The notes: generated from the letters alone by a model not told the origin. Counted from the first letter of the stretch, positions 5,843 to 53,595 are shown. The stretch: DNA of 64,000 bases from an uncultured Candidatus Actinomarina sp. (GCA_902628045.1 CACOLU010000003.1:14039-78038), one strand, 5' to 3'. A program made the numbers and translations.

Positions 5843-7444
5843 ATGATATATTTAAGTATGACTCTCTCAAAAATTTCAAGGTATGTATTATTAGCTATAT
5901 TCAATGCATTAATTGTCTACACAATACCTCTTGCTTTAACATTTGAATCTTGGTTCTTTTTATCATTAACTTTAGTTATTGGAATTTTAGTAAATGTTGT
6001 TTATTTTACTGATAGATTTCAACCTATGAAATGGATACTTCCAGGTATGATCTTTATGATATCTTTTGTTGTATTTCCCGCTATTTACAATACCTTTGTT
6101 TCTTTTACTAATTGGTCCACTGGACATATTCTTACTAAAGCACAAGCAATAAGTGTTTTAGAAGATCGTGTATTTACACCAGATGATCAAAAAGGACTTG
6201 AATTTGAAATGTATATTCTTCAAGATCAAGATTTAAAATTTTATTATGTTGCTAATTTAGATTCTGATAATATCTTATTTGGAAGGGCAGTTTCAGATGA
6301 TGAGATATTCTCTACATCTTATGCGACCCACGAACCGTCACTTTTTATTAATGGCGAGTTTTCAATACCAGATGGTTTTTATCAACTTTCTGGAAAAGAA
6401 CAAATAGCTAATTCAACGACTTTGCAAGAACTCTCACTTGTAATTGATCAAAATACTCGAGCACAATTATATAAAATATCAGTTTTTGGAGCTTCAACAG
6501 GTCGCCTAACTTCCACTTCACAACTTTATACATATGATGAATTGAACGATGTCTTAATTAATAATGCGACCAATAGTATATGCCCAGTGATAAAAGATAA
6601 TTTTGAATGTGATGGTAATGAGATTGAACCAGGTTGGAGAGTTTATGTTGGTGGTGAAAATTACAGAAAACTTTTTTCTAGTCAGAGAATTAGAGGCCCA
6701 TTAAATATTGTGACTAAATGGACATTTCAATTTGCTTTGCTGTCTGTCATTTTTTCTTTTGCAGTTGGACTTCTCTTAAGTGTGATCTTAAACAAGGATG
6801 GCTTAAAATTTCAAAGAATCTATCGATCTGTCTTTATACTTCCGTATGCTATACCAGCATTTGTTTCAGCCCTTGTATGGAAAGGGTTGTTAAACCCTGA
6901 TTACGGAGTTATTAATTCGTGGCTTGGTCCATTGTATGAAATATTAGATGTAGAGCCTGTGAAATGGCTTAAAACTAAAGAAAGTGCAAGATCTGCTGTT
7001 CTTCTTGTGAATACATGGCTTGGCTTTCCTTATATGTTTTTAATTACAACTGGAGCATTACAATCCATTCCTAAGGAACTTATTGAAGCTGCAAAGGTTG
7101 ATGGTGCAACTGGGCTTCAATCATTTTGGAGGATAACTTTTCCGTTGTTGATGGTCTCTATATCTCCATTACTAATTGGTTCATTTGCATTTAATTTCAA
7201 TAACTTTACTTTGATATTTCTTCTCTCTGGAGGTGGCCCCCCAATTGTTGGTAGTGAGGTTTCTGTAGGATGGACGGATATTTTGATTTCTTTTACTTAC
7301 AAACTTGCAATTTCTGGAGGTAGGGGAAACTTATTTGGACTTGCATCAAGTGTTACAATAATTATTTTTGCTCTTGTTCTAATAATTTCAGCTATTTCAT
7401 TTAGATATACAAAACGATTGGAAAGAATTTATGGAAACATTTAA
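5843..7444 (+). CDS. Maltodextrin ABC transporter permease, MalF-like, with a large extracytoplasmic loop
   Basis: 533 aa. Has the EAA-type motif region (IEAAKVDGATGLQSFWRITFPLL), multiple TM helices and a soluble loop of about 190 aa after the third helix, as in MalF. The start could instead be the Met at 5858. Confidence 0.85.
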   Translation: MIYLSMTLSKISRYVLLAIFNALIVYTIPLALTFESWFFLSLTLVIGILVNVVYFTDRFQPMKWILPGMIFMISFVVFPAIYNTFVSFTNWSTGHILTKAQAISVLEDRVFTPDDQKGLEFEMYILQDQDLKFYYVANLDSDNILFGRAVSDDEIFSTSYATHEPSLFINGEFSIPDGFYQLSGKEQIANSTTLQELSLVIDQNTRAQLYKISVFGASTGRLTSTSQLYTYDELNDVLINNATNSICPVIKDNFECDGNEIEPGWRVYVGGENYRKLFSSQRIRGPLNIVTKWTFQFALLSVIFSFAVGLLLSVILNKDGLKFQRIYRSVFILPYAIPAFVSALVWKGLLNPDYGVINSWLGPLYEILDVEPVKWLKTKESARSAVLLVNTWLGFPYMFLITTGALQSIPKELIEAAKVDGATGLQSFWRITFPLLMVSISPLLIGSFAFNFNNFTLIFLLSGGGPPIVGSEVSVGWTDILISFTYKLAISGGRGNLFGLASSVTIIIFALVLIISAISFRYTKRLERIYGNI

Positions 7445-10295: not shown

Positions 10296-11201
10296 GTGGC
10301 TAAAGTTACATTTGAGAATAGAACAGTAGTTGTTACAGGAGCAGGTAATGGGCTTGGTAAAGCGTATGCTTTAGATTTAGGTGCCCGTGGTGCAAAAGTA
10401 GTTGTTAATGATTTAGGTGGTGCTGTAGATGGATCTGGTTCTGGAAGTACGCCGGCTGATGAAGTTGTAAATGAAATCATAGCTAATGGAGGAGAGGCTG
10501 TTGCTAATTACGACTCAGTTGCAACTAGGGAAGGTGGAGAATCTATTATACAAACTGCGATTGATAATTTTGGCACAGTAGATGCAGTTGTAAACAATGC
10601 TGGTATTTTAAGAGATAAAAGTTTTGCAAACATGTCAGAAGAAGAGTTATCTCTAATTATAGATGTGCATCTAAAAGGCACCTTTTATGTTTCTCAGCCT
10701 GCTTTTAAGGTAATGAAAGAAAATGCATATGGAAGGATAGTAAATGTGGCTTCACCTTCTGGTTTATTTGGTAATTTTGGTCAGTCAAACTATGGTGCGG
10801 CAAAAATGGGTATAGTAGGACTAACTAACGTATTAGCAATTGAAGGTGCAAAATATAATATAAAAGTAAATGTCATTGCTCCAACAGCTTATACACGAAT
10901 GACAGAAGCACTTCTTCCAGAAGATGTAGGAAAATTATTTAGTGCAGAATTAGTAACTCCGATGGTTTCTTATCTAGCATCTGAGGCTTGTGAGCCAAGT
11001 CATGAAATTTTTGGAGTTGCTGCTGGGCGTTTTGCTCGTATTGGAATTATTACTCATGAAGGATATGTAAATACAAGTGCAACTGCCGAAGACATAAATG
11101 ACAATATTGAAGAAATAAGAAATATTGAAAATGGCACGTATCCTCTTAGTAACGAGGATGAGCTGATGATAATTCAGAAAGCTATACAAGGTAATCAATA
11201 A
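10296..11201 (+). CDS. Short-chain dehydrogenase, MFE-2/HSD17B4-like (probable (3R)-hydroxyacyl-CoA dehydrogenase)
   Basis: TGAGNGLGKAYA Rossmann motif, NNAG, and the catalytic YGAAK motif. Overall resemblance to the dehydrogenase domain of type-2 multifunctional beta-oxidation enzymes. Confidence 0.75.
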   Translation: MAKVTFENRTVVVTGAGNGLGKAYALDLGARGAKVVVNDLGGAVDGSGSGSTPADEVVNEIIANGGEAVANYDSVATREGGESIIQTAIDNFGTVDAVVNNAGILRDKSFANMSEEELSLIIDVHLKGTFYVSQPAFKVMKENAYGRIVNVASPSGLFGNFGQSNYGAAKMGIVGLTNVLAIEGAKYNIKVNVIAPTAYTRMTEALLPEDVGKLFSAELVTPMVSYLASEACEPSHEIFGVAAGRFARIGIITHEGYVNTSATAEDINDNIEEIRNIENGTYPLSNEDELMIIQKAIQGNQ

Positions 11202-11225
11202 GATAAATTTGATGTATAATTTCGT

Positions 11226-12443
11226 ATGGTAAAAACTGAAATTAAATACTCTGATGCAGAACAACTGGTAAGAGACAAATTAGATGAACTAATTCAATTC
11301 AGAAATGAAACTGATGACATTAAAGAATTTTGGGGTAAACAATTCGATTTAGGACTTGCTTGGGTTCAATTTCCAGAAGGCGCAGGCGGATTAGGATTAA
11401 ATCCAAAATATCAACTTATAATTACTGAAACTCTAAGGAATGAAGGAATTTCTCAACAAAACAGGATTGCAAATATTCTTGGTATAGGAATGGGTGCACC
11501 AACAATTGTGGAGTATGGCACTCCAGAACAAATTCAACAATACTTAAGACCAATGTTCACTGCTGATGAGATATGGTGCCAATTATTTTCAGAGCCAGGC
11601 TCTGGATCAGATTTAGCAAGTTTATCAACTAAAGCTATAGATGATGGTGATGGTTTTATTGTAAATGGTCAAAAAGTTTGGACAACATTAGGGCATGTAG
11701 CTAAATGGGGCCTAATAGTGACCAGGACAGATCCAGATGTTCCAAAGCATAGGGGATTAACTTTTTTTATAGTTGACATGGAGTCTGATGGTGTAGACGT
11801 AAGGCCTCTTAGACAAATAACTGGTGAAGCAGAGTTTAATGAGGTTTATTTTACTGACGTTAAGGTTCCAAAAGAAAATATTTTAGGAGGCCTTGGAGAT
11901 GGCTGGAGAGTTTCTCTTGCTATATTAATGAATGAAAGAGTTGCTATTGGAGGCAATGTTCGTGAAAGAGGAAGTGGTGCGCCAGGTCACTTAGTTCAAC
12001 TTTGGAATGATAAAAAACTTGATGATCCAGTCTCAAGAGATAAGTTGATAAAACTTTGGATTGAACAGGAAGCAGTGAGATTAACAAATGTTAGAGCATT
12101 TGAAAATAGAGAAAAAGGAACACCTGGCCCAGAAGGCTCTACTAGCAAATTATATGAAGCTGAAATCAACAAAGCATCATATGAGTTTGGTATGGAAATG
12201 CTTGGGAATGATGCGTTATTATTTCCAAGAGGATATGAGTTGACTCAACCTGAATTAAATTTTGAAAATGAGACTTTTGGTTTTACGGATACGCAAAGTC
12301 TTTTTCTAAGATCAAGAGCAAATTCAATAGAGGGTGGAACATCTGAAATAATGAGAAATATTATTGCTGAGAGAGTTCTAGGGCTTCCAAGTGAGCCAAA
12401 ACTAGATAAAGATAAAGCTTGGAAAGATATTCCAAGATCTTAG
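11226..12443 (+). CDS. Acyl-CoA dehydrogenase
   Basis: 405 aa. Motifs CQLFSEPGSGSDLASL and GQKVWTT, with C-terminal IEGGTSEIMRNIIAERVLGLP. Confidence 0.9.
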   Translation: MVKTEIKYSDAEQLVRDKLDELIQFRNETDDIKEFWGKQFDLGLAWVQFPEGAGGLGLNPKYQLIITETLRNEGISQQNRIANILGIGMGAPTIVEYGTPEQIQQYLRPMFTADEIWCQLFSEPGSGSDLASLSTKAIDDGDGFIVNGQKVWTTLGHVAKWGLIVTRTDPDVPKHRGLTFFIVDMESDGVDVRPLRQITGEAEFNEVYFTDVKVPKENILGGLGDGWRVSLAILMNERVAIGGNVRERGSGAPGHLVQLWNDKKLDDPVSRDKLIKLWIEQEAVRLTNVRAFENREKGTPGPEGSTSKLYEAEINKASYEFGMEMLGNDALLFPRGYELTQPELNFENETFGFTDTQSLFLRSRANSIEGGTSEIMRNIIAERVLGLPSEPKLDKDKAWKDIPRS

Positions 12444-13054
12444 TAAATTACGCTAAATAAACCATCTTCACAATTTATTGTTACTTCGTCGCTTATGGAA
12501 ACATTTCTGAGTGTCTTTGTACTACCAGGTTCAACATCTGTTTTATCAAGTTCCCATTTGGCACCTGTAATTGATAATGATTTTAAATGTGTGATTGGTA
12601 TGATGCTAAAATTTGAACCAACTTTCATTTCGATGGAAACATTTCTTTTAAATATAATTTTGTTATCTTTATAGAACCACGTCAAGTTTTCGGCAAATTC
12701 ATAATTAATGAGACTAGAAAAAATTGAAAACAAATGGTCAATTTCTCCCTCTTCTCCGCCAATTAAATAAATATTCTTTTCGTTTGGGTTATCGATAATC
12801 TCAAGGGAAAGTTCAAAATCAGTCTTGTCTTTATCTGTTTCATATTTAATTAAATTTATATCCATACTTTTTATTTTTTCTAGTAATGAAGCTTCAATCG
12901 AATCTAGATCACCTAGAACTATAGTTGGTGTTATTAATCTGTTAAATAAATGTTTAGTGCCTTTATCAACACCTATAATTTCTGTAAAATCTTTATCATT
13001 TAAATCGTGATTGGTTGAGCAATTTCCGCCTAATGATATAAGAATATTTGTCAT
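12440..13054 (-). CDS. Thiamine pyrophosphokinase
   Basis: 204 aa. N-terminal catalytic domain with VLGDLDSI and a beta-rich C-terminal thiamine-binding-like domain. Confidence 0.65.
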   Translation of the reverse strand: MTNILISLGGNCSTNHDLNDKDFTEIIGVDKGTKHLFNRLITPTIVLGDLDSIEASLLEKIKSMDINLIKYETDKDKTDFELSLEIIDNPNEKNIYLIGGEEGEIDHLFSIFSSLINYEFAENLTWFYKDNKIIFKRNVSIEMKVGSNFSIIPITHLKSLSITGAKWELDKTDVEPGSTKTLRNVSISDEVTINCEDGLFSVIY

Positions 13055-24037: not shown

Positions 24038-25111
24038 ATGGAAAATAACATAAAAGTTGCAATATTGGGTGTGGGCAATTGTGCCAGCTCATTTGTTCAA
24101 GGAATCGAGCATTACAGTAATTCTGATAATGAAGATGGTCTTATCTCTGACATCATTGGAGGTTATAAGGTTTCTAATATTGAAGTAGTAGCGGCATATG
24201 ATATTAATACTTCAAAAGTTGGTAAAGATTTAAGTGAAGCTATATTTGCAGAACCAAACAACACAATTAAGTTTTGTGATGTATCAAAAACGGGTGTAAT
24301 AGTTGAGCCGGGGGTAGTGAATGATGGTGTTGGAAAATTTGTTAAAGATATTATCACAACTTCACCTGACTCAGAGAATTTTGAAGGTTCTTTAAAAGAT
24401 TCAGGTGCAGAAATACTAATTAACTTACTACCAGTAGGATCTGACGAGGCAGTAAAATTCTACGCTCAATCCGCTATTAATGTCGGTGTAGGGTTTATTA
24501 ATTGTATTCCTGTTTTTATAGCTAGAGATAAAGAATGGTATCAAAAGTTTAAAGATGCTGGAGTACCACTAATCGGCGATGATATTAAAAGCCAAGTTGG
24601 AGCAACAATTGTTCATAGAGTTTTAGCGCAATTATTTTCTGATAGAGGAGTCAATCTTGAAAACACTTATCAACTTAATGTTGGTGGGAATATGGACTTT
24701 CTCAATATGCTTGAAGAAGACCGTCTGGAAACAAAAAGAACAAGCAAAACTTCTTCTGTTACATCTGTAGCTAATAAAGGGAAAGGTATATCACCTGATA
24801 ATGTAAGGATTGGACCTTCTGACTATGTAAGGTGGTTGGAAGATAGAAAAAAAGCATTTATAAGACTTGAAGGAAAAGGTTTTGGAGGGGCACCACTTAA
24901 TTTAGAAGTTCAATTAGAAGTTTGGGATTCACCAAATAGCGCAGGAGTAACGATTGATGCAGTCAGGTATATGAAGTTTTTCAAAGAAAAAAATGATCTA
25001 GATTCTCTAGATTTAGTTTCAGCTTGGTTAATGAAAGCTCCATTTAAGCCTGTAAAAGATGGAGATGTATTAAGGCAGCTTCATGAGCTTACTCATGTTG
25101 AATCTGATTAA
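24038..25111 (+). CDS. ino1: myo-Inositol-3-phosphate synthase
   Basis: 357 aa. VAILGVGNCASSFVQGI N-terminus and overall match to the actinobacterial/archaeal short MIPS type. Confidence 0.9.
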   Translation: MENNIKVAILGVGNCASSFVQGIEHYSNSDNEDGLISDIIGGYKVSNIEVVAAYDINTSKVGKDLSEAIFAEPNNTIKFCDVSKTGVIVEPGVVNDGVGKFVKDIITTSPDSENFEGSLKDSGAEILINLLPVGSDEAVKFYAQSAINVGVGFINCIPVFIARDKEWYQKFKDAGVPLIGDDIKSQVGATIVHRVLAQLFSDRGVNLENTYQLNVGGNMDFLNMLEEDRLETKRTSKTSSVTSVANKGKGISPDNVRIGPSDYVRWLEDRKKAFIRLEGKGFGGAPLNLEVQLEVWDSPNSAGVTIDAVRYMKFFKEKNDLDSLDLVSAWLMKAPFKPVKDGDVLRQLHELTHVESD

Positions 25112-26370
25112 ATCAAAGATTCACTGAAAATTTCTAAAGCTTCTTCTACCTGATTAATTGGTGTAGTTAAAGGACCCATAAACCTAATAACATTCCCAAA
25201 CTCACCACAAGAAACAAGAAGTAAACCTTTTTCCTTACATTTGGTAATAATTTTTTGAGTTTTTTCTTTATCAGGAGTTTTAGATTCTTTATCATTTACA
25301 ATTTCTACACCAATCATTGGACCGTAACCTCTCACATCCCCAACAAAATTAAATTCATTCAATAAGTTTGATAGAACTTTGTTCATTATTTTTGCTTGCT
25401 TGTTTGCATTTTTTAAAATGTTTTCATTATCAAACGCATCTAGTACTCCTAATGCCGCAGCACAGGATATAGGTGAGGCACCAAAAGTACTTCCAATACC
25501 AGAGTCATGAATCGAATCCATAATTTCTGATTTACCTAAAACTGCAGCTAGAGGAAAACCACCTGCAATTCCTTTGGCCAATGTAACCATGTCTGGGACT
25601 ACTCCCACTGTTTCTGCACCGAACATATTTCCTGTTCGTCCATATCCTGTTTGCACTTCGTCAAAAATTAATAAGATATTATGTTTGTCACAAATATCTC
25701 TGAGTTGCGATAAAAAATAACTTGAAGCTGGAATATACCCTCCTTCCCCAAGTTCTACTTCAATCACAATTGCTGCTGTGTCATTTGGATCAAGAGTATT
25801 GTTAAATACTTCATTGACGCTCAGCAATGCATCTTCATCTGAAATATCTCTGTAGCTGTATGGGTAAATAGCATGTTTAACAAATTCGGGAAATGGTCCA
25901 AATCCTTCTTTATAAGGCTTGTCTTTTCCGGTCAACCCCATTGCAAGATAAGTTCTTCCGTGGAAACCACCTTTAAAAGATAAAATTGCTTTTTTGTTTG
26001 TAAAATATCTTGCAATCTTAACTGCATTTTCTACGGCCTCAGCACCGCTATTAACCATAAAAGTTTTAGTTTCAGTGTCTATTGGATATCTTTTATTAAG
26101 TTCTTCGGATAGTTTTACAGCATTTTCATGTGGTGCAAACGCAAAACATGAATGTGAAAAGTTATCAAGCTGATTTTTGACTCTATCGACAACTCTTGGA
26201 TGAAGATGGCCAGTGTTTAAAACAGCGTATCCTCCAACATAATCTAAATATCGATTACCTTCGGAATCCCATATTTCAGCATTTTTACCCTTAACAATAA
26301 AATTTTCTAAGGTGCTATACCAGGCACTTGGGACATTCGATTGTATTTGATCATTTTGAATGTAAACCAT
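25108..26370 (-). CDS. Class III PLP aminotransferase (4-aminobutyrate aminotransferase-like)
   Basis: 420 aa. Motifs GGFHGRT, LIFDEVQTGYGRTG and TLAKGIAGGFP (PLP lysine). Confidence 0.8.
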   Translation of the reverse strand: MVYIQNDQIQSNVPSAWYSTLENFIVKGKNAEIWDSEGNRYLDYVGGYAVLNTGHLHPRVVDRVKNQLDNFSHSCFAFAPHENAVKLSEELNKRYPIDTETKTFMVNSGAEAVENAVKIARYFTNKKAILSFKGGFHGRTYLAMGLTGKDKPYKEGFGPFPEFVKHAIYPYSYRDISDEDALLSVNEVFNNTLDPNDTAAIVIEVELGEGGYIPASSYFLSQLRDICDKHNILLIFDEVQTGYGRTGNMFGAETVGVVPDMVTLAKGIAGGFPLAAVLGKSEIMDSIHDSGIGSTFGASPISCAAALGVLDAFDNENILKNANKQAKIMNKVLSNLLNEFNFVGDVRGYGPMIGVEIVNDKESKTPDKEKTQKIITKCKEKGLLLVSCGEFGNVIRFMGPLTTPINQVEEALEIFSESLI

Positions 26371-26432: not shown

Positions 26433-26801
26433 ATGGATTTTTATTTTTTAGAATTACCCTCATATATAAGCCTTTCTATTTGTGGTTTAGTTGGTTTATT
26501 TTTGCTCGTAATACATTTAGGTAAGTATAAAGTAAAATTAAAAGTTACTAATTCATTAATACTATTTGCATTAATTTCAGTACTTTTACAAGTCTTGTTT
26601 GTTGTTTATTATTCACAAAATAATGAAATAGGGTCCTTCAGTCTTTTCTATAATATTGTCAATCTTTTTGTTTTGACATTTCTTTATATTTATAGGAATG
26701 AAATGGAATTGAATTATTATCTTTACTGGTCATTTGCGTTACTCTTTTTAATGGGAATGGAAATCAGAGCAATACAGACACTAGGTATGGGACTAAATTA
26801 A
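26433..26801 (+). CDS. Hypothetical 4-TM membrane protein
   Basis: 122 aa, four hydrophobic segments. Its stop overlaps the next start (TAATG). Confidence 0.55.
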   Translation: MDFYFLELPSYISLSICGLVGLFLLVIHLGKYKVKLKVTNSLILFALISVLLQVLFVVYYSQNNEIGSFSLFYNIVNLFVLTFLYIYRNEMELNYYLYWSFALLFLMGMEIRAIQTLGMGLN

Positions 26802-27508
26802 TGGGCTACAAGATTTTAAGTGATGACCTAACATTTGCCAACGTAAATTCCGATTCTCCAAAAGTTTGCTTTTTGCATGGATGGGGAACAAGTGGAAAAG
26901 ATTTTAGTAAAATTGATCCTTATTTTGAATCTATAACAATTGACATCCCGGGTTTTGGTAAGTCTGTTCCTTTTACAATTAGTTTCTCACCAAAGAAATA
27001 TGCAGAGTATCTTTATAAATTAATTCCTGATTCAGTTGAGATAGTTGTTGGCCATTCATTTGGAGGAAGGATTGCTGCTCATTTATCACAGCTCAAAAAC
27101 TATGAAAAAATAGTTATTATTGCTTCACCACTGATAAAAATTAAAAATTCAAAGAAAAGCATTTCTTTTTTCAATATTTTTAAATTTATGAATAAGTTAA
27201 ATTTACTAAGTGACAACAGACTTGACTCAATGAGAAATAAATATGGTTCTGAAGATTATAGAAAAGCCTCCAAAGTATTAAAAGATACATTAGTTATGGC
27301 CGTAAATGACGATCTGTCATCTATTCTTCCATCAATCAATACAAAAGTTGAATTAATTTATGGTCAAGATGATTTGGTAGTACCAGTAAAAGTAGGTCTT
27401 GATTCAAATAATATAATTCCTAATTCTGAATTAACTATAATTCCGAATGAAGGTCACAATATGCTAAGAAGTAGTTCAAAGAAAATAGTTGAGATTATTT
27501 TAAGATGA
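26801..27508 (+). CDS. Alpha/beta-fold hydrolase
   Basis: 235 aa. HGWG oxyanion region, nucleophile elbow GHSFGG, late Asp (QDD) and His (EGHNM). Confidence 0.8.
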   Translation: MGYKILSDDLTFANVNSDSPKVCFLHGWGTSGKDFSKIDPYFESITIDIPGFGKSVPFTISFSPKKYAEYLYKLIPDSVEIVVGHSFGGRIAAHLSQLKNYEKIVIIASPLIKIKNSKKSISFFNIFKFMNKLNLLSDNRLDSMRNKYGSEDYRKASKVLKDTLVMAVNDDLSSILPSINTKVELIYGQDDLVVPVKVGLDSNNIIPNSELTIIPNEGHNMLRSSSKKIVEIILR

Positions 27509-29028
27509 GTTTTATTTATATAGTTGTAATTTCATTACTTACATTGAGTTCTTGTATCAATTCCATAAGGTGGGAAAGAATTGCACAAAGAGAGCACTAT
27601 ATTTCAGGATATGTTACGAAATTTTACTTTAGGTGGGTTAGGTTAGTCCCATTTAACAATATATATTTTTTTATTGCTTTTGTTTTAGCATTCTTAAGCC
27701 TTTGGTCACCTTATCCAGCAATTGTTTTATCAATTGTCACAATACTTACACCAACTGGTTTAGGTTATAAATATCGAACATCAAAAGTGCAAACAACTGA
27801 AAGGCTGATGAGGTTGAATATAACTTATTATTTATTGATTGTTGTAATTTCTTCTATTTCTCTTTTTATAGGTTATGGCTATTTTCTTGCATTGCTTGTG
27901 AATTTATTTTCATTTTATGTTTACGATCAAGCACTAAGATTGACAAAAAGTTTTGAAAAAAATTCATCACAAAAATATATTGATTCAGCCGAAAAAGCAT
28001 TAAAAATATTTAAAGGACCGATTATTGCAATTACTGGGTCATATTCAAAAACAACTACTAAAAATGTTTTATCTCAAATACTTTCACAACATAATAAAAC
28101 TTTTGCCACACCAGAAAGTTTTAATAATCGATTGGGCATTGCTAAAGCTATAAATGAAAATTTAAAAAAAGAGGATGAATTTGCAATTATTGAAATGGGC
28201 ACCTACGGATTTGGAGAAATACGAGAGATGTGTTCATGGGTAAGGCCTCATATATCCGTCATCACCGGAATTGCCCCTGTTCACTTAGAAAGAATGAAAA
28301 CTTTAGAAAATATACTTGATGCAAAATCTGAAATAGTTGACTTAACTGGTTCTGTGATAATTAATGGTGACGATCCTCTTCTTCTTAGTCAAGCTAGATT
28401 GTGGACTGCTCAAAAAATGGTAATTGACTGCTCAACCACTTACGAGAGAGCAGCAGTATATGTTGACTACAAAAATGAAAAACATCAAATTTTTATTGGA
28501 GGTGATTACATAGGAGAAGTATCTGGTCCAAAAATATTACAATTGTCTATTTCATTATCAGTTGGCGTCATGGTTGCACTTGAGATGGATGTGAAATCTT
28601 ATATTCAAAATATAAATACTTTAGAAAAGACTGATCATAGACAGACAATCTTAAAAGGAAATATGGGACAAACAATTATTGATAATTCTTTTAATTCAAA
28701 CCCAATATCCTGTCTTGCTTCACTTGATGCACTTCAGAATATCGAAACCGATGGAATGAAATACCTCATTACTCCGGGAATGGTTGAGTTAGGCTCAGAA
28801 CAGTTTAGTTATAATTATGAGTTTGCTTACAATGCAAGTGAAGTCATAGACGAAGCTTTGGTTGTTGGCTTTACAAATAAAGGTCCTCTAATGCTTGCAT
28901 TTGAGGACAATAATATTCCGGTAAAATATTTTAAGAATAGAGATTTAGCTGTTTCTTATCTAAACTCTGTTGTGAATGAAAATGATGTTGTATTATTTGA
29001 AAACGATTTACCTGACCATCATCCTTAA
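27505..29028 (+). CDS. MurF-like Mur ligase with a polytopic membrane N-terminal region replacing canonical domain 1
   Basis: P-loop GSYSKTTTK at aa 177-185, IIEMGTYGFGEI, ITGIAPVHLERM and DNSFNSNP (the MurF DDSYNANP equivalent). The first ~165 aa contain about four hydrophobic helices. Confidence 0.7.
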   Translation: MSFIYIVVISLLTLSSCINSIRWERIAQREHYISGYVTKFYFRWVRLVPFNNIYFFIAFVLAFLSLWSPYPAIVLSIVTILTPTGLGYKYRTSKVQTTERLMRLNITYYLLIVVISSISLFIGYGYFLALLVNLFSFYVYDQALRLTKSFEKNSSQKYIDSAEKALKIFKGPIIAITGSYSKTTTKNVLSQILSQHNKTFATPESFNNRLGIAKAINENLKKEDEFAIIEMGTYGFGEIREMCSWVRPHISVITGIAPVHLERMKTLENILDAKSEIVDLTGSVIINGDDPLLLSQARLWTAQKMVIDCSTTYERAAVYVDYKNEKHQIFIGGDYIGEVSGPKILQLSISLSVGVMVALEMDVKSYIQNINTLEKTDHRQTILKGNMGQTIIDNSFNSNPISCLASLDALQNIETDGMKYLITPGMVELGSEQFSYNYEFAYNASEVIDEALVVGFTNKGPLMLAFEDNNIPVKYFKNRDLAVSYLNSVVNENDVVLFENDLPDHHP

Positions 29029-29031
29029 ACC

Positions 29032-30114
29032 ATGACTGAATCAATTGCTGTAATATTTGGTGGTCCTTCTGACGAGCATGATATATCTATATTGACTGGT
29101 TTGCAGTCTTCAAGAATTTTATCCAGTAAATATGATGTTCTTAATATATATTGGTCAAAAGAAAATAAATGGTATTTAGTTAAAAATGACCTTGAGTCAA
29201 TAGATTTTGTTGATAATAGCGATATTTTTAAGAATGAATTAACAATAAAGTATGACTCTAAGTCAGGTTTCTACTTAAAAAAGAAAAAAATTACATTTAA
29301 AATTGCAGTGAATGCTTGCCATGGAGGTCCAGGAGAAGATGGAACTCTTCAGAGTTTACTTAGTTTATTAAAAATTAATTACACAGGACCCACATTAACT
29401 ACTTCACAAATAGGAATGGATAAGTTTGTTTTTTATACCTTAATGAAAGAAAGTGGAATACCTGTTTTAGATAAACATTTAGTAAGCATAAATTCTAAGC
29501 CTGATTTTTCTGGACCTTATATTTTAAAACCAAGATTTGGAGGTTCTTCAATTGGGGTAGAGGTTGTTGAGGACTATGAAACAGCTTTAAAACTTACTAG
29601 TAATTCTAGAATTTATAGTCAAGGATCAACAGTAGAGAAATTCCTTGAAAATTCTCACGATTTACTTATTGGAATCAGAACTTACCCAAACTTAGATTTT
29701 TCAGAAATTGAAAAACCAATCAGAACAAGTAATTTTGAGTTATTTTCTTACAATGACAAATATCTTGACAATGGTGGATTAGAGGGATCAAAAAGAGAAC
29801 TACCCGCAAATATTAGCCCAGAAATTCAAACTCAAATTCAAGAGATACTTAAATTATTTGTTAAGCAAATTGAAATAAGAGGAATTTCAAGAGTAGATTT
29901 TTTGTATCACAATGAAAGTTTGTATTTAAACGAAGTTAATACAATTCCTGGAAGTCATGCATTATATCTTTGGCAAAATATTGGAAAAAGTAAATTTGAA
30001 CTTTTAAATGACATGGTAGAAGAGGCCAAAAATAATAATACTCATTGGAGTACAGTTGGTTCTGATGGGGTAGCTCTTAAAAGTGCTAAAGATATTCAAA
30101 GCAAATTAGGTTAA
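29032..30114 (+). CDS. ddl: D-alanine--D-alanine ligase
   Basis: 360 aa. Motifs FGGPSDEHDIS, HGGPGEDGTLQSLL, KPRFGGSSIGV and RVDFLY...EVNTIPG. Confidence 0.9.
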   Translation: MTESIAVIFGGPSDEHDISILTGLQSSRILSSKYDVLNIYWSKENKWYLVKNDLESIDFVDNSDIFKNELTIKYDSKSGFYLKKKKITFKIAVNACHGGPGEDGTLQSLLSLLKINYTGPTLTTSQIGMDKFVFYTLMKESGIPVLDKHLVSINSKPDFSGPYILKPRFGGSSIGVEVVEDYETALKLTSNSRIYSQGSTVEKFLENSHDLLIGIRTYPNLDFSEIEKPIRTSNFELFSYNDKYLDNGGLEGSKRELPANISPEIQTQIQEILKLFVKQIEIRGISRVDFLYHNESLYLNEVNTIPGSHALYLWQNIGKSKFELLNDMVEEAKNNNTHWSTVGSDGVALKSAKDIQSKLG

Positions 30115-30121
30115 TTAATTT

Positions 30122-30757
30122 ATGGTTGGCATTTATTGGGACTGCGACGGAACCCTAATGGATACTGAAACATCGTATGGTTTAGCATGGAAAGAGCACC
30201 TCAGTAATTTTGGACTTAAGATATCTGAAGAGGAAACAAGACAATGGGTAGGTATTGATGATAGATTGGTGCACAGTTTTTATTCGAAGATTATTGATTT
30301 AGAAAATTTTGACAAAACTATGGCATCTCTTGGAAAAATCATAGAGAGCACCTTGAACGAGCAACTTTTGTTTCAAGATGCGAAAACATTACTAGAGGAG
30401 TCTGACAAGAGGGGATGGACGTCTGCGTGTGTTTCAGCAAGTCCTTATGAATTATTAAAAAATAAATTACTAAAGGCAAATATTTATGAATATTTTTCAT
30501 ACGTTATAGGGGGCGATTTAGTTAAAAGAAATAAACCATATCCAGATATATATAATAAAGCAATTAGTGAACTTCAAACTACAAAGAATATAGTCATTGA
30601 AGACAGCCCTCCTGGTATTTCATCTGGAAAGGCATCGGGTACTTTTGTAGTTGCAATTGATAGAGGCATATTTTCAAAAAATGAATTAGACAAAGCAGAC
30701 TTAGTAATTGATAAATTATCAATTGATGTTCTTGAAAAAGTTTTGAATAGCCTTTAA
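30122..30757 (+). CDS. HAD-superfamily phosphatase (beta-phosphoglucomutase-like subfamily IA)
   Basis: 211 aa. DCDGTLMDTE motif I, a Ser/Thr motif II, KPYPDIY and EDSPPG motifs. Confidence 0.8.
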   Translation: MVGIYWDCDGTLMDTETSYGLAWKEHLSNFGLKISEEETRQWVGIDDRLVHSFYSKIIDLENFDKTMASLGKIIESTLNEQLLFQDAKTLLEESDKRGWTSACVSASPYELLKNKLLKANIYEYFSYVIGGDLVKRNKPYPDIYNKAISELQTTKNIVIEDSPPGISSGKASGTFVVAIDRGIFSKNELDKADLVIDKLSIDVLEKVLNSL

Positions 30758-30810: not shown

Positions 30811-31233
30811 CTAAGATAAATTCAATATCAAAACTGGTATTTTTCGTTCTGTTCTTTGCTGATAATTGGAGTATCCTCCTTTATTCATATAATCCATTTT
30901 TGACCACCAATCTTCACGTTCTTCATTGAATATTTCTTTTGCAACTGCTGTATATTTATTTTTTCCAATTTGAATTTCACAGTTTGGATTAGCTTTTAAA
31001 TTATGATACCAACCTGGATTTGTAGGACTTCCACCTTTTGATGCCACTAGGCAAATCTCATCGCCTTCTTTCATGAATACAAGTACATTTTTTCTTAACA
31101 AATTGGTTTTTGCACCGGTTGAGAAAAGAATTAAACAAGGACGACCTTGTAGAAATTTTCCTATTCTTCCATTTGAGTAGATATAAATATAATTATGAAA
31201 AAACAAAAAAATAAAAATTAAATATCTTCTCAT
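30811..31233 (-). CDS. Deazaflavin (F420)-dependent nitroreductase-family (DDN/FDOR-A) protein
   Basis: GRPCLILFSTGAKTN ... ASKGGSPTNPGWYHNLKANP ... match the DDN family signature. The start is placed at the Met forming an ATGA overlap with the upstream photolyase-like stop (31230-31233). Confidence 0.75.
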   Translation of the reverse strand: MRRYLIFIFLFFHNYIYIYSNGRIGKFLQGRPCLILFSTGAKTNLLRKNVLVFMKEGDEICLVASKGGSPTNPGWYHNLKANPNCEIQIGKNKYTAVAKEIFNEEREDWWSKMDYMNKGGYSNYQQRTERKIPVLILNLS

Positions 31234-32429
31234 AAACTTAACTTTATCTTTTTTCTCCATGAACTAAAACTTGTAGGATAAAAATTAATTGGTTCTGCAA
31301 GTCTTAATGCTGGAAATTCAACTGATGGAATATTTTGTTTTGTGATTTTTTTGTATTTTGGTACTGGTGCAAATGTAGATGCAAAATTTTTATTTTGTAA
31401 ATAGTCTTCAGGATTAGCTAAATAAACCTGTAATTCTCTTTTGCTATTTATTTCTTTTAAACAGTCAATTAAAAAATTTAATCTTTTAGTCGATAATTGT
31501 AATTTACTTAATAATTCCTTATCGAAAATAAAAATTACGGGAAGTTCGTAATAATAACTCATAGCCGGATCACTGTCGCCAATTGATTCACCTGTAATCC
31601 ACACAAATGATGGAGGAGTGCTGTTGTTTTCTTTTATTTCTTTTGGACCAAATACTTTTTGTTCGTCTACTTTAAAATCATGATCTATTTTTCCAGAAAT
31701 ATTAGTATCAGGCCAATCTTGTATGGGGCAGTTATATTTCAATTCACAACCATTACATAACTGTGGTCCTCTCTTTTCAACTTGAAATTTAGAAAATCCA
31801 TATGGCTTTCCCGTTTGAGATCCCATTACCCAATGCCAACCTAATCTGTTTGCAAAACGTGAACCATCAATCAAATGTTGAAACATATAATCCTCATATT
31901 TATTCCAATCATTACCAACTCTTAAAGAATTATGAGATGCAAACCACATTCGCGTTTGATTAACCATGTAACCTGTTTTTTCTAGCTCATCTTCGATTGC
32001 AGTAATACAATTCATATTTTTATAATTATCCGCATTTGAATTAGGTTTTTCTATTTTGTAGTTGAGAAATTTTTTTGATTTTTTACCAATTATTGCGTAC
32101 AAATGTCTTGAAAACTCCTGCCAAAGAAGTTCATCTTGGAATTTAGTTCTATCTTTATATTCAAATTTCTCAACTGCTCGCCATACTTCAGAAAGACTTA
32201 GTAAGCCGTGTCGTATATAAGGTGATAGATAAGATGAACCCCTTGAATTTGTAGGGTATACATTATTCCGTTTTGTAGCGTATTTGTTAATATCTAGCTG
32301 ATTTAATGCATTATCAGCATTTGATTGGCCACCTGACAAAAATGGATAGGTGAAGTCATCGCAACAAAGTCCACTAAAGTATTTTTTTATTATTTCTGCA
32401 TTATCAAGTTGTAGATCAATTAAAGACAT
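31230..32429 (-). CDS. Photolyase/cryptochrome-superfamily protein with inverted domain order (NewPHL-like)
   Basis: aa 1-240 carry FAD-binding-domain motifs: GGQSNADNAL, SYLSPYIRHGLLS, ELLWQEFSRH, GYMVNQTRMWFASH, DGSRFANRLGWHWVMG. aa ~275-399 look like the photolyase alpha/beta domain (FVWITGESIGDSDPA...VIFIFD). Cys141, Cys225, Cys228 and Cys234 form a possible Fe-S pattern. Confidence 0.7.
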   Translation of the reverse strand: MSLIDLQLDNAEIIKKYFSGLCCDDFTYPFLSGGQSNADNALNQLDINKYATKRNNVYPTNSRGSSYLSPYIRHGLLSLSEVWRAVEKFEYKDRTKFQDELLWQEFSRHLYAIIGKKSKKFLNYKIEKPNSNADNYKNMNCITAIEDELEKTGYMVNQTRMWFASHNSLRVGNDWNKYEDYMFQHLIDGSRFANRLGWHWVMGSQTGKPYGFSKFQVEKRGPQLCNGCELKYNCPIQDWPDTNISGKIDHDFKVDEQKVFGPKEIKENNSTPPSFVWITGESIGDSDPAMSYYYELPVIFIFDKELLSKLQLSTKRLNFLIDCLKEINSKRELQVYLANPEDYLQNKNFASTFAPVPKYKKITKQNIPSVEFPALRLAEPINFYPTSFSSWRKKIKLSL

Positions 32430-49996: not shown

Positions 49997-50405
49997 GGAT
50001 AAAAACACACTGAACTTCTACACATACATTTAATGGAAGGCTGGAAACACCAACAGCTGATCGTGTTGATTTTTCATTAAAGTATTCTGAAAGTTTATCT
50101 GTAAATCCGTTAAGGACTTTTGCGTGGTCCTCAAAACCTTCGTTTGCATTTACAAAACCAATAACATTAACAGGCTGCAAGTTTTGAATAGACCCATGTT
50201 TTTTGATTGTTGCAATTGTAAGTTCAGCACATAACTCTGCAGCTTTATAAGCTTCATCTATAGAAATCTCAGTTGGTACTTTTCCTACATATTTATATTC
50301 TTCAGTAATAGGAACATGTCCAGATGTGTAAACGTAGTTTCCAATTTTTTTATAGGTAACATAATTTCCAATAGCTTCAGGAGCGATTGGAAAATCTTTA
50401 TCCAT
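49989..50405 (-). CDS. RidA/YjgF/L-PSP family protein
   Basis: 138 aa. GNYVYTSGHVP ... RSAVGVSSLPLNVCVEV pattern of the RidA fold. Confidence 0.8.
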   Translation of the reverse strand: MDKDFPIAPEAIGNYVTYKKIGNYVYTSGHVPITEEYKYVGKVPTEISIDEAYKAAELCAELTIATIKKHGSIQNLQPVNVIGFVNANEGFEDHAKVLNGFTDKLSEYFNEKSTRSAVGVSSLPLNVCVEVQCVFIHE

Positions 50406-51402
50406 TATTTAAAAGATTTCCTATAAGATCCACAACTCTGTTTGAATAACCCCATTCATTGTCATACCAGCATACTACTTTGACATGATTTCCATCTAGC
50501 AATTGAGTTGATGATGCATCGTAAATACTTGAATGTGGATTATTTAATATATCAGTTGATACAAGCGGAATGTCGGAATACTCTAAAATACCCTTTAGCT
50601 CGTTATCTGAAGCGTGTTTCACAGCTAAATTTATATCTTCAATTGTTACTGACTTTTCTAATTCAACTACTAAATCAACAACACTTCCATTTGGTACTGG
50701 AACTCTCATAGCCATTCCATCTAATTTACCGTTTAATTCAGGTAAAACCATACCAACAGCTTTAGCTGCACCTGTTGAAGTAGGGATTATATTTTGGGTA
50801 GCACTTCGGCCTCTTCTAAAGTCACTATGGGTAGTTTCAGCTAATGCTTGGTCGTTAGTATATGCATGAACTGTGGTCATAAGACCAGATTTGATTCCAA
50901 AATTATCATCTAGAACTTTAGCTATAGGAGCTAAACAATTTGTAGTACATGAAGCATTAGATACAATTTTATCATCAGGATTCAAATCTCCATCATTCAC
51001 ACCCAGAACTATAGTTGCATCAATTTCATCTTTTGGAGGAACAGTAAGCAATACTTTTTTAGCACCTGCATTCAGATGCTTGTTAAGAGATTCATTATCT
51101 CTAAAAATTCCTGTCGATTCAATTACAACATCAACTTCTAACTCACTCCATGGAAGTTCAGCAGGATCTTTTATCGAAGTAAGCTTTATTATTCTTTCAT
51201 CAACTAAAAGTTTATCTCCATCAACTCGCACATCACTATCTAATATGCCCATAACAGAGTCGTGTTTTAAAAGATATGCAAGGTTTTCATAATTGCCCAA
51301 ATCATTAATGGCAACGACATTGATATCAGAATTACTTTCAACAATAATTCTTAATATAGAACGTCCAATTCTACCAAAACCATTAATGGCTACATTACCC
51401 AT
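50398..51402 (-). CDS. gap: Glyceraldehyde-3-phosphate dehydrogenase (type I, catalytically complete)
   Basis: 334 aa. Motifs INGFGRIGR, SNASCTTNCLAP (Cys152), TTVHAYT, STGAAKAV, MRVPVP and WYDNEWGYS. Confidence 0.95.
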   Translation of the reverse strand: MGNVAINGFGRIGRSILRIIVESNSDINVVAINDLGNYENLAYLLKHDSVMGILDSDVRVDGDKLLVDERIIKLTSIKDPAELPWSELEVDVVIESTGIFRDNESLNKHLNAGAKKVLLTVPPKDEIDATIVLGVNDGDLNPDDKIVSNASCTTNCLAPIAKVLDDNFGIKSGLMTTVHAYTNDQALAETTHSDFRRGRSATQNIIPTSTGAAKAVGMVLPELNGKLDGMAMRVPVPNGSVVDLVVELEKSVTIEDINLAVKHASDNELKGILEYSDIPLVSTDILNNPHSSIYDASSTQLLDGNHVKVVCWYDNEWGYSNRVVDLIGNLLNNG

Positions 51403-52407
51403 CTAAAACACCTGCCCCAGTTTTTTTACTGTATCGACAATTCTAGCCGCATAACCCCATCCATTATCGAACCATATAATGAGCTTAATTTTTTTATTTT
51501 TAATAACCATAGTGGCTAATCCATCTACTAAACCAGAGAGTGTACTTCTTACAACATCTGAGGAAACAATTGGATCATACGTTAATCCAATAATATTTTT
51601 TAATTCTGATTTAGAAGCATTCTCAATAATTCTATTAATATCTTCAATACTGGACTCGTTTTTGATATCAATTGTCAAATCAACTGTACTTCCATCAGGA
51701 ATGGGTACTGTCATTGAAGATGAAGCAATTTTACCTTCAATGAATGGAAGAACATTTGCTATAACTTCAGAGGATTTAGTAATATTTGGGATAATATTTT
51801 CACCAGCTGCTCTGTTAAGTCTGAATCCTTCACCTGCAACATCTGCTAAACGATTTGAATTTGAATATCCGTGAACAGTTGTAAGAAATGCTCTTTCAAC
51901 CCCAACTTTACTTTCTAAAGCTTTAAGAATAGGTGCAACTGCATTTGCTGTATTAGAACCTAAGGAAAATGCATTTGAGTTTAAATTTATATCTTCATCA
52001 TTTGCACCAGGGACATATATTTGAATATCTTTAAAATCTTCTGGAGTTGATGCTACGATAACTTTTTTACAACCTTTTGATAAATGTTTTTCAACATCTT
52101 CTTTTGTTTTAGGTTTGCCAGTTGCAAGAACTACGACATCAGTATTGAGTTTATCCCATTTAGCATCATCGCCATCTTTCCAAGTATTAAAAACTATTTC
52201 TTTACCATTTACAACAATACCTGTCTCGGAATCTTCAATTTCTGCATCAAGCTGTCCATATATAGTGTCGTACTTTAATAAATAAATTAAATTTGCTTTG
52301 TCGGCAGTATCTGAAATTGACACAATGTTAATGTCTTCATCATTCAATGTTTGTCTAAATAGATCTCGGCCTATTCTTCCAAATCCAACTAGTGAAATAT
52401 TTGTCAT
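51403..52407 (-). CDS. GAPDH-like paralog lacking the catalytic cysteine (probable pseudoenzyme or neofunctionalised)
   Basis: 334 aa and colinear with gap. VGFGRIGR, TTVHGYS and WFDNGWGYA are retained. The active-site SCTTNC is SNTANA (Asn152; codon AAT at 51952-51954, checked). TGAAKAV is replaced by TKSSEVI, and MRVP by MTVP. Confidence 0.85.
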   Translation of the reverse strand: MTNISLVGFGRIGRDLFRQTLNDEDINIVSISDTADKANLIYLLKYDTIYGQLDAEIEDSETGIVVNGKEIVFNTWKDGDDAKWDKLNTDVVVLATGKPKTKEDVEKHLSKGCKKVIVASTPEDFKDIQIYVPGANDEDINLNSNAFSLGSNTANAVAPILKALESKVGVERAFLTTVHGYSNSNRLADVAGEGFRLNRAAGENIIPNITKSSEVIANVLPFIEGKIASSSMTVPIPDGSTVDLTIDIKNESSIEDINRIIENASKSELKNIIGLTYDPIVSSDVVRSTLSGLVDGLATMVIKNKKIKLIIWFDNGWGYAARIVDTVKKLGQVF

Positions 52408-52476: not shown

Positions 52477-53595
52477 ATGACAGAATTAACAAGAAATATT
52501 CATGATTCAATCTTTGGATCTATGTCCACTGAAGAACTATTAGCTAAAGCATTTGAAAAAAAAGTGAATTACTTTGGAGATAATATAACTTATAGCCCCA
52601 AAGTTTTTATTCCGTTAACAACAATGTGTAGAGATAATTGTGGATACTGTACATTTGTAAAATCTCCAAAACAAGGTGGTACCTATTTGAATCAAGCAGA
52701 TGTTATATCAATAGCTCGAGCTGGTGACAACGCTGGTTGCTATGAGGCTTTGTTTACATTAGGGGATAAGCCAGAACTTAAATGGAATTTTGCTTTAAAC
52801 CAACTTAACGAGCTAGGCCACTCCTCAACTCATGATTACCTAATTAATTCAATGAAGGTTGTTAATGAAAGATTTAATATATTTCCACATGCAAATCCTG
52901 GCTTGATGAGCCGAAAAGAAATTAAAGACTTAAAAAAATATTCACCGTCTGGTGGAATTATGATTGAATCATTTTCAAAAAATATACATGAAAAAGGAAA
53001 AGCTCATTACAAAACTAAAACAAAACATATTGATTTAAGGTTAAAAACTCTAAACTATGCATTCGAAGAGAAATATCCAGTTACGACTGGATTACTTCTT
53101 GGAGTAACTACAACAAAAGAAGAAATGGTAAACGATATTGCCAATTTAATAACTTATATGAATGAGAATTTAGCAATTCAAGAAGTAATATTACAAAATT
53201 TTAGAGCAAAGAAAAACACATTAATGAAAAATGAATCTGAAATAACGAACGATTTATTTTTAAGAATTATTGCAACAACTCGAATTTATGCTCCTGCACA
53301 TATTTCTTTACAAGTTCCACCAAATCTTTCACCAGATATAATGATATTTTTAAAAAGTGGAATTAATGATTTAGGTGGAATATCTCCACTAACTATAGAT
53401 TGGGTAAATCCAGACCATTTGTGGCCAAATATAAATAAATTAAAATTAGATGTTTCAAGCACAGGCCAGGTTCTTAAAAAAAGGCTTCCCGTTTATCCTG
53501 AATTTATAAAAAAAGAATGGTTAAACAGTAAAATTTACGAAAAAGTGAATAATATTATTGATACAGATGGATATCCAAAAGAGCAAGATGAATAA
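52477..53595 (+). CDS. cofG: FO (7,8-didemethyl-8-hydroxy-5-deazariboflavin) synthase subunit CofG, radical SAM
   Basis: 372 aa. CRDNCGYC radical-SAM triad at aa 51-58. Overall CofG-like and adjacent to cofH. Confidence 0.8.
   Translation: MTELTRNIHDSIFGSMSTEELLAKAFEKKVNYFGDNITYSPKVFIPLTTMCRDNCGYCTFVKSPKQGGTYLNQADVISIARAGDNAGCYEALFTLGDKPELKWNFALNQLNELGHSSTHDYLINSMKVVNERFNIFPHANPGLMSRKEIKDLKKYSPSGGIMIESFSKNIHEKGKAHYKTKTKHIDLRLKTLNYAFEEKYPVTTGLLLGVTTTKEEMVNDIANLITYMNENLAIQEVILQNFRAKKNTLMKNESEITNDLFLRIIATTRIYAPAHISLQVPPNLSPDIMIFLKSGINDLGGISPLTIDWVNPDHLWPNINKLKLDVSSTGQVLKKRLPVYPEFIKKEWLNSKIYEKVNNIIDTDGYPKEQDE

Follow-up and report, generated by a model that had tools for sequence, protein, structure and literature searches.

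A MurF-class ligase with a predicted membrane domain and a serine hydrolase partner in Actinomycetota and Poribacteria

Introduction

MurF is regarded as a soluble, uridine diphosphate (UDP)-dependent enzyme and an antibiotic target. Could the same addition of D-Ala-D-Ala be carried out by a protein embedded in the membrane? A locus from an uncultured Candidatus Actinomarina sp. raises this question. It lies in a 64-kb stretch of DNA (64,000 nucleotides; GCA_902628045.1, CACOLU010000003.1:14039-78038), here called the window, and encodes a Mur ligase that begins with hydrophobic helices. An earlier note, made from the sequence alone, described this ligase as one of five genes in an overlapping operon that also encodes a D-Ala-D-Ala ligase (Ddl). 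The note proposed that either the MurF of this organism is membrane-embedded or the genes form a separate envelope-modification system. Here, we examine the ligase, its partners, and the homologous loci of other genomes.

Results

The ligase is MurF-class, as judged from its sequence, from about residue 153 onward. The open reading frame (ORF; 27505-29028, + strand) matches the Pfam families Mur_ligase_M (PF08245; 95.5 bits, 5e-27) and Mur_ligase_C (PF02875), the latter at 27.7 bits, just below the gathering score of 28.4; this C-terminal domain is on record for most homologues. The best NCBIfam model is murF (TIGR01143), which scores 177.9 bits and aligns ligase residues 153-498 with model positions 56-403. 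Other members of the family score higher on the same model, with 197 bits in Nocardioides and 249 bits in a Poribacteria locus, L075. The MurD, MurE, MurC, and MurT models score far below murF on the window ligase (MurT, NF045635: 20.3 bits, cut-off 800).

Structure comparisons agree with these assignments. A profile of the family matches MurF sequences of the PDB at 1e-31 to 1e-38, from profile position ~160 only. The AlphaFold2 model of the full-length ligase has a predicted local distance difference test (pLDDT) score of 91.2 and a predicted template modelling (pTM) score of 0.84, and the top structures found with it by Foldseek are the MurF entries 4qf5, 3zl8, 4cvm, and 1gg4 (E 1e-18 to 2.7e-21, ~365 columns). 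MurT structures are also present among the fold and sequence matches. Thus, the best NCBIfam, PDB-sequence, and Foldseek matches are all MurF, which bears out the MurF-like character proposed for the ligase.

The alignment with Escherichia coli MurF starts near residue 91. The P-loop (T106-K115), E158, H188-L-E190, K202, and the D330/N334/N336 motif are kept, and the MurF-type catalytic machinery is therefore intact. The MurF-type residues D-[DN]-[ST]-[FY]-N-[SA]-N-P are retained. Of the motifs singled out in the earlier note, ITGIAPVHLERM (residues 253-264) and DNSFNSNP (residues 393-400) are present as described, and the P-loop GSYSKTTTK stands at residues 178-186 rather than 177-185.

The N-terminal part of the ligase is a predicted polytopic membrane domain. 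This domain occupies residues 1-168 (27505-28008, +) and precedes the central adenosine triphosphate (ATP)-binding and C-terminal domains (residues 169-507; 28009-29028, +). Hydrophobic segments on the Kyte-Doolittle scale lie at residues 1-22, 45-81, and 103-139. AlphaFold2 predicts residues 1-168 to be all-helical (helices 3-29, 36-47, 49/51-64, 70-81, 99-122, 127-134, and 136-168), with a pLDDT of 91-93 for the domain both in the full-length model and when modelled alone. Lysine and arginine together number five in the loop 23-50 and four in the loop 82-100, and none in the turns 65-69 and 122-126. The model is consistent with about five membrane helices, an N-out/C-in topology, and cytoplasmic ligase domains, an arrangement that fits the positive-inside distribution of charges.

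Fifteen residues of the domain (W23, R25, Q28, R29, E30, Y32, F40, R43, W44, P83, G85, T98, R100, D141, and E151) are invariant in 42 homologues with identities down to 35%. Since these residues fall mostly in predicted cytoplasmic loops, the domain is likely to be more than an anchor. The replacement of MurF domain 1 by a polytopic membrane domain, as proposed from the sequence, is upheld by the all-helical model and by MurF alignments that start at residues 153-166. Structure prediction, hidden Markov model (HMM) searches, and Foldseek are all contrary to residues 1-170 being an ordinary soluble MurF domain 1.

The membrane domain appears to be specific to this ligase family. A Pfam search of the domain returned no family, and Foldseek found no relative in the PDB (best E 0.9, template modelling scores of at most 0.35); weak matches to DPMS and MATE structures were insignificant, and we rejected both as structural relatives. 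We compared a profile of the domain with 1.84 billion representative proteins and obtained 406 clusters. The best 150 of these are either proteins of ~500 amino acids in which the domain is N-terminal or shorter fragments. In a Pfam check of eight of the proteins, each had domains of Mur ligases or hydrolases. Thus, among the best 150 of the 406 clusters, the domain is found on this ligase family only. Three sequences with the appearance of hydrolase-ligase fusions (P0183, P0223, and P0267) were rejected as such; they include stretches rich in Arg, Pro, and Ala, as frameshifted translation of high-GC (guanine-cytosine) DNA typically gives, and are probably gene-call artefacts across a 4-nucleotide overlap.

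Hydrolase, ligase, and Ddl form a conserved three-gene module in Actinomycetota. A scan with one genome per species detected at least 586 relatives, and we compared the best 80 loci. These derive from Actinomarina, many Acidimicrobiia, Nocardioides, Microbacteriaceae, Modestobacter, Frankiales, Propionibacteriaceae, and Egibacteraceae; named isolates with the module include Nocardioides spp., Arsenicicoccus dermatophilus, and one cluster named for a Gordonia isolate. Adjacency was counted over 79 loci, 74 of which have room downstream of the ligase. The hydrolase gene lies directly upstream of the ligase gene in 74 of the 79, usually with the same 4-nucleotide overlap, and the Ddl gene directly downstream in 65. 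The linkage spans classes of Actinomycetota and takes in Acidimicrobiia, Nocardioides, Microbacteriaceae, Modestobacter, and Arsenicicoccus, among others. No other neighbour is kept in more than about one third of the loci.

This arrangement is far from chance, and the serine hydrolase, adjacent in 74/79 loci, is an obligate partner of the ligase. The linkage of the ligase to the hydrolase and Ddl genes is therefore conserved. The functional unit is these three genes rather than the five of the operon first described, of which the outer two, encoding a small membrane protein (ORF1) and a HAD phosphatase, adjoin the core in Actinomarina only. The module is retained in the highly streamlined Actinomarina genome; the window has a GC content of ~31%, and its nearest named relatives are metagenome-assembled genomes (MAGs) of Candidatus Actinomarina and Acidimicrobiia. 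The surrounding genes are of housekeeping type (csp, rpmB, recG, rsmD, coaD, plsX, rnc, and smc). In Arsenicicoccus, a GNAT gene lies between the ligase and ddl genes.

A Poribacteria clade carries the module in the murF slot. One of the best 80 loci, L075 (contig CAXXTN010000005.1, 38.7% GC), comes from a MAG labelled Candidatus Poribacteria and has the order rsmH, penicillin-binding protein (PBP), murE, hydrolase, insertion sequence transposase, membrane ligase, ddl, mraY, murD, ftsW, murG, and murC. Homologues of its ligase, 540-555 amino acids in length, form at least 120 clusters at ≥60% identity and are encoded on Poribacteria chromosomes of 4-6 Mb. Three Poribacteria loci share the order rsmH-ftsL-PBP-murE-hydrolase-ligase-ddl-mraY-murD-ftsW-murG-murC, and in none of these three does the dcw (division and cell wall) cluster hold a canonical murF. 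Two of the Poribacteria ligases are named MurF by NCBI.

The Poribacteria ligases have the same architecture as the actinobacterial clade, and share with it Q28, Y32, T98, R100, and E151. The N-terminal domains of the two clades are homologous (hhalign probability 87%, E 3.9e-6, 143 columns). Because the Poribacteria type reaches only 10-23 bits on the actinobacterial profile, the 406 clusters understate the family. The presence of the triad in the murF slot favours a membrane-embedded lineage MurF for the family. As a separate observation, the transposase of L075 (8400-9719) is of the ISKra4 family and splits an otherwise coupled hydrolase-ligase pair inside the dcw cluster.

The partner proteins retain their catalytic residues. 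The hydrolase (235 amino acids; 26801-27508, +) is an alpha/beta-fold protein that matches Pfam Abhydrolase_1/6 and has no hydrophobic segment. Among 77 homologues, S86 (within GHSFGG), D191, H219, the HGW oxyanion motif, and a family-specific G149-S-x-D-Y153 motif are kept at 90-100%, with the Ser-Asp-His triad itself at 99-100%. Position 161 is basic, being Arg in 99% of homologues and Lys in the window protein. The conserved Ser-Asp-His residues and the lack of a hydrophobic segment point to a working cytoplasmic serine hydrolase. None of the curated NCBIfam subfamilies claims the protein; the best is the EstV lipase model, at 95 bits for a cut-off of 300.

The Ddl protein (360 amino acids; 29032-30114, +) passes both Pfam models (Dala_Dala_lig_N and _C) and scores 195.6 bits on TIGR01205, below the cut-off of 245.65. 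It keeps E15, S150, K215, Y216, R255, D257, E270, and N272 of E. coli DdlB. By this residue pattern, which includes the omega-loop tyrosine Y216, it is a true D-Ala-D-Ala ligase. We also considered a Van-type resistance cluster for the window and rejected it; the protein scores best as a D-Ala-D-Ala ligase and keeps Y216. No vanH, vanX, vanR, or vanS was found among the scanned window ORFs or the neighbouring genes that were annotated through the corresponding locus L083.

Some actinomycetes carry more than one MurF-class gene. Within the 64-kb window, we found neither a second Mur ligase nor dcw genes. Locus L089 pairs the module with a 381-amino-acid MurF-class gene (5983-7128, -) that scores 334.5 bits on TIGR01143, above the cut-off, and that lacks most of domain 1; hence, some actinomycetes hold more than one such gene. 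Downstream of Ddl in the same locus (10705-12599, +) are a 394-amino-acid protein without a family and a VanX-like Peptidase_M15. L089 may therefore be a D-Ala-D-Ala-centred accessory cluster.

Seeking the dcw cluster of Actinomarina or other Acidimicrobiia, we scanned metagenome contigs with an AT-biased MraY motif and obtained 120 loci. These were SAR11-like contigs encoding MurE-MurF fusions of roughly 948 amino acids, gammaproteobacterial contigs, an Elusimicrobia sequence, and other Gram-negative types, and tetranucleotide similarity singled out no Actinomarina among them. The scan yielded several observations of its own. Many marine contigs of 24-27% GC (among them L092, L096, L104, L110, and L125) encode MurE-MurF fusions of ~943-956 amino acids directly upstream of mraY, and in L177 the MurE-MurF region is split into 540 and 390 amino acids. 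Other low-GC marine loci (L150, L164, L183, L184, L195, L204, and L210) have mraY with neither murE nor murF beside it. Most of these have a short murD (~390-400 amino acids) after mraY, and a ~491-amino-acid gene lies upstream on the opposite strand (iPGM in L150). The mraY-murD pair of L150 is followed by tuf-nusG-rplA, and L183 encodes a secretin.

The five genes of the window are tightly packed on one strand. ORF calling and Pfam/NCBIfam searches reproduced the layout given in the earlier note, with five + strand ORFs of the named families joined by overlaps and gaps of 3-7 nucleotides. ORF1 (122 amino acids; 26433-26801, +), a small polytopic membrane protein, has hydrophobic segments and no Pfam family, and meets the hydrolase gene in a TAATG overlap (26799-26803). 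The hydrolase stop codon overlaps the ligase start in an ATGA (27505-27508). A gap of 3 nucleotides separates the ligase and Ddl genes, and one of 7 nucleotides separates Ddl from the HAD-IA phosphatase-like gene (211 amino acids; 30122-30757, +; Pfam HAD_2). Promoter and terminator scans of this AT-rich locus were uninformative, with fewer promoter-like sites than in shuffled sequences.

The flanking genes change between lineages. A homologue of ORF1 lies ~3.4 kb upstream in other Acidimicrobiia, behind genes for a short-chain dehydrogenase and a histidine kinase. We rejected ORF1 as kin of the ligase membrane domain (hhalign probability 0.15%). Only the loci of Actinomarina (L001-L003, L083, and L084) have a HAD homologue after Ddl, and the other Acidimicrobiia loci lack a HAD gene; the genes after Ddl elsewhere are an AsnC-type regulator, csp, rpmB, and recG. 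Like the HAD gene, neighbours encoding a myo-inositol-phosphate synthase and an aminotransferase occur in Actinomarina loci only. In the window, the myo-inositol-1-phosphate synthase gene (24038-25111, +) and the class-III aminotransferase gene (25108-26370, -) converge with a 4-nucleotide overlap immediately upstream of the module, and this converging pair is likewise confined to Actinomarina loci.

Other genes of the window are worth recording. Directly after the HAD gene is an ORF (30811-31260, -) whose homologue in L083 has an F420H2_quin_red domain; its start is overlapped by 31 nucleotides by a 399-amino-acid ORF (31230-32429, -) that has no matching gene call in L083. Radical-SAM genes of the CofG/CofH type, for F420 chromophore synthesis, lie at 52477-55420 (+). 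The occurrence of CofG/CofH-type genes and an F420H2_quin_red-type ORF in one window suggests the use of F420 by a streamlined actinobacterium. Two tandem paralogues of glyceraldehyde-3-phosphate dehydrogenase, 334 amino acids each, are encoded at 50398-51402 and 51403-52407 (-), one of which fits Pfam Gp_dh_C far better than the other (229 vs 135 bits).

Discussion

We consider it reasonably likely that the ligase is anchored in the membrane, adds D-Ala-D-Ala in the synthesis of peptidoglycan precursors, and works with an obligate serine-hydrolase partner. Ddl would make D-Ala-D-Ala. Held in the membrane, with the ATP-binding and C-terminal domains on the cytoplasmic side, the ligase would activate the free carboxylate of the muramyl-tripeptide as an acyl phosphate, and add the dipeptide; the MurF reaction would thus be run at the membrane surface, next to MraY. 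The task of holding the acceptor may have passed from the UDP-binding domain to the membrane domain, in which invariant Gln, Tyr, Thr, Arg, and Glu residues are predicted to face the cytoplasm. The hydrolase, catalytically competent to judge from its conserved residues, may act just before or just after ligation.

The acceptor could be UDP-N-acetylmuramic acid (MurNAc)-tripeptide held for hand-off to MraY or, by analogy with MurT/GatD, a lipid-linked tripeptide. In a full lipid-linked scheme, D-Ala-D-Ala would be added to undecaprenyl-pyrophosphate-MurNAc-tripeptide, with the membrane domain as the binding site of the polyprenyl-pyrophosphate head group and the hydrolase as the catalyst of a coupled step. 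Stem peptides would then be completed after MraY in Poribacteria and many Acidimicrobiia, and the ligase would be the sole MurF of Actinomarina. Taken jointly, these propositions are rather unlikely.

Several observations weigh against assigning the ligase to peptidoglycan precursor synthesis. Its score does not reach the murF cut-off of 288.6 bits, and the UDP-binding domain 1 of every solved MurF is absent from it. Ordinary MurF chemistry needs no hydrolase and does not account for this partner. Six loci with downstream room have no Ddl nearby. The Actinomycetota module is located at a ddl-rpmB-recG housekeeping locus, outside the dcw cluster, and the second MurF-class gene of L089 stands beside the module and divergent from it. 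The absence of a canonical murF is, in addition, a result for the loci and clusters examined in Actinomycetota and Poribacteria.

The ligase could instead be an accessory paralogue, an alternative that has a real but clearly smaller chance of being correct. Here, a canonical murF of the dcw cluster would make UDP-MurNAc-pentapeptide in Actinomycetota, including this organism, and the membrane ligase and hydrolase would serve repair or remodelling. Truncated stems, for instance tri- or tetrapeptides carried by lipid I/II or recovered by recycling, would be trimmed by the hydrolase and then re-extended with the Ddl dipeptide, in a parallel to LdcA/Mpl. None of the Actinomycetota loci examined has the module inside the dcw cluster, the family occurs in parts of the phylum only, in a patchy and not universal distribution, and a GNAT gene intervenes before ddl in Arsenicicoccus. 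A membrane domain would also suit a lipid-linked acceptor, as for MurT/GatD. With its second MurF-class gene and VanX-like M15 peptidase, L089 makes an accessory role possible in some Actinomycetota. However, the Poribacteria module fills the murF slot of a cluster that has no canonical murF, the module is kept in a very streamlined genome, and co-occurrence with a full-length canonical murF was seen in no genome here. Of the two readings offered in the earlier note, the Poribacteria slot favours a membrane-embedded MurF for the family, and L089 leaves room for an accessory function in some Actinomycetota.

It is far less probable that the enzyme catalyzes a different reaction, with another amine or with a membrane acceptor outside peptidoglycan (a lipid, a teichoic-type polymer, or a protein), and that its adjacency to Ddl reflects an inherited ddl-recG order. 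The sub-threshold murF score, the novel N-terminal domain without a structural relative, and the minority of loci without a nearby Ddl are all compatible with this idea, and enzymes of the Mur-ligase fold take many carboxylates (e.g., FolC, CapB, CphA, CfbE, and MurT). The MurF-type C-terminal motif and the pattern of best matches nevertheless point to MurF, Ddl adjacency is held across two phyla and in varied settings that include non-housekeeping loci, and the Poribacteria module is embedded among murE, mraY, and murD. Finally, there is next to no likelihood that the N-terminal 165 residues are an artefact, either of a mis-called start or of a soluble MurF domain 1 made hydrophobic by AT-rich composition. 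A GC content of 31% does enrich Ile, Phe, Leu, Lys, and Asn, but homologues of 60-70% GC share both the domain and its invariant residues. The ATGA overlap with the hydrolase gene, conserved in most loci, also pins down the start. The predicted bundle is all-helical, unlike the alpha/beta domain 1 of MurF, and the MurF HMM and structures align from about residue 153-166 only; these results refute the artefact.

If a membrane-anchored MurF-class enzyme is the correct assignment, the enzyme that adds D-Ala-D-Ala can be integral to the membrane, without the UDP-binding domain and with an adjoining serine hydrolase. The family is spread over hundreds of species and takes the murF slot in one phylum. 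Its assignment would bear on how cell-wall synthesis couples its cytoplasmic stage to its membrane stage, on stem-peptide completion on lipid-linked intermediates, and on the cell wall of aquatic Acidimicrobiia, the structure and composition of which have been stated to be unknown (PMC7771536). These proteins carry the name MurF in IMG and, for some members, at NCBI, and pathway reconstructions therefore silently count the family as canonical. Full-text literature searches on transmembrane MurF, actinobacterial MurF-like ligases, and Actinomarina peptidoglycan found no description of a membrane-anchored MurF family, and none was met in articles covering the evolution of Mur ligases, Mur chimeras, the lipocone superfamily, the distribution of van genes, and Actinomarinales genomes.

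Comparison with known systems

Extra murF2-type genes occur next to van genes in Actinobacteria, linked to genes for a D-Ala-D-X ligase and a dipeptidase (PMC8698665). L089 resembles these clusters through its VanX-like peptidase, a likeness at the level of gene linkage. The window differs from them in that it lacks vanH, vanX, vanR, and vanS and its Ddl keeps Y216.

Among other amide ligases, the poly-gamma-glutamate synthetase PgsB/CapB is similarly membrane-associated and of the Mur-ligase fold. It differs in having a single anchor helix, another reaction, and PgsC/A as partners, and CapB/PgsB is not among the NCBIfam matches listed for the window ligase. Mpl and LdcA offer an analogy only, in that the peptide for a Mur ligase is prepared by a serine-type hydrolase. 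Mpl, however, is a soluble, UDP-dependent enzyme of the MurC type, LdcA does not belong to the alpha/beta hydrolases, and their genes lie apart.

MurT/GatD, the lipid II isoglutaminyl synthase, works at the membrane and has a lipid-linked precursor as its substrate. Like the system described here, it has a subunit of the Mur-ligase fold without the canonical N-terminal nucleotide-binding domain, and a small hydrolase-type partner encoded adjacent to it. In contrast, MurT is soluble, with a Cys4 zinc ribbon and a DUF1727 C-terminal domain, and its partner is a glutamine amidotransferase rather than a Ser-Asp-His alpha/beta hydrolase.

With MurF itself (EC 6.3.2.10; TIGR01143; PDB 1GG4, 4QF5, 3ZL8, and 4CVM), the ligase shares the central and C-terminal domains, the P-loop, the catalytic residues, and the DD(S/T)(Y/F)N(A/S)NP motif. 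The partnership with Ddl is also common to both. In the Poribacteria clade the gene lies between murE and mraY; in the window and the Actinomycetota loci it does not. Where MurF has an alpha/beta UDP-binding domain 1, the present family has a ~165-residue helical domain predicted to lie in the membrane, and an alpha/beta-hydrolase partner besides. MurF-class chemistry is known; what is new here is a MurF-class ligase that combines a novel membrane domain with an obligate hydrolase partner.

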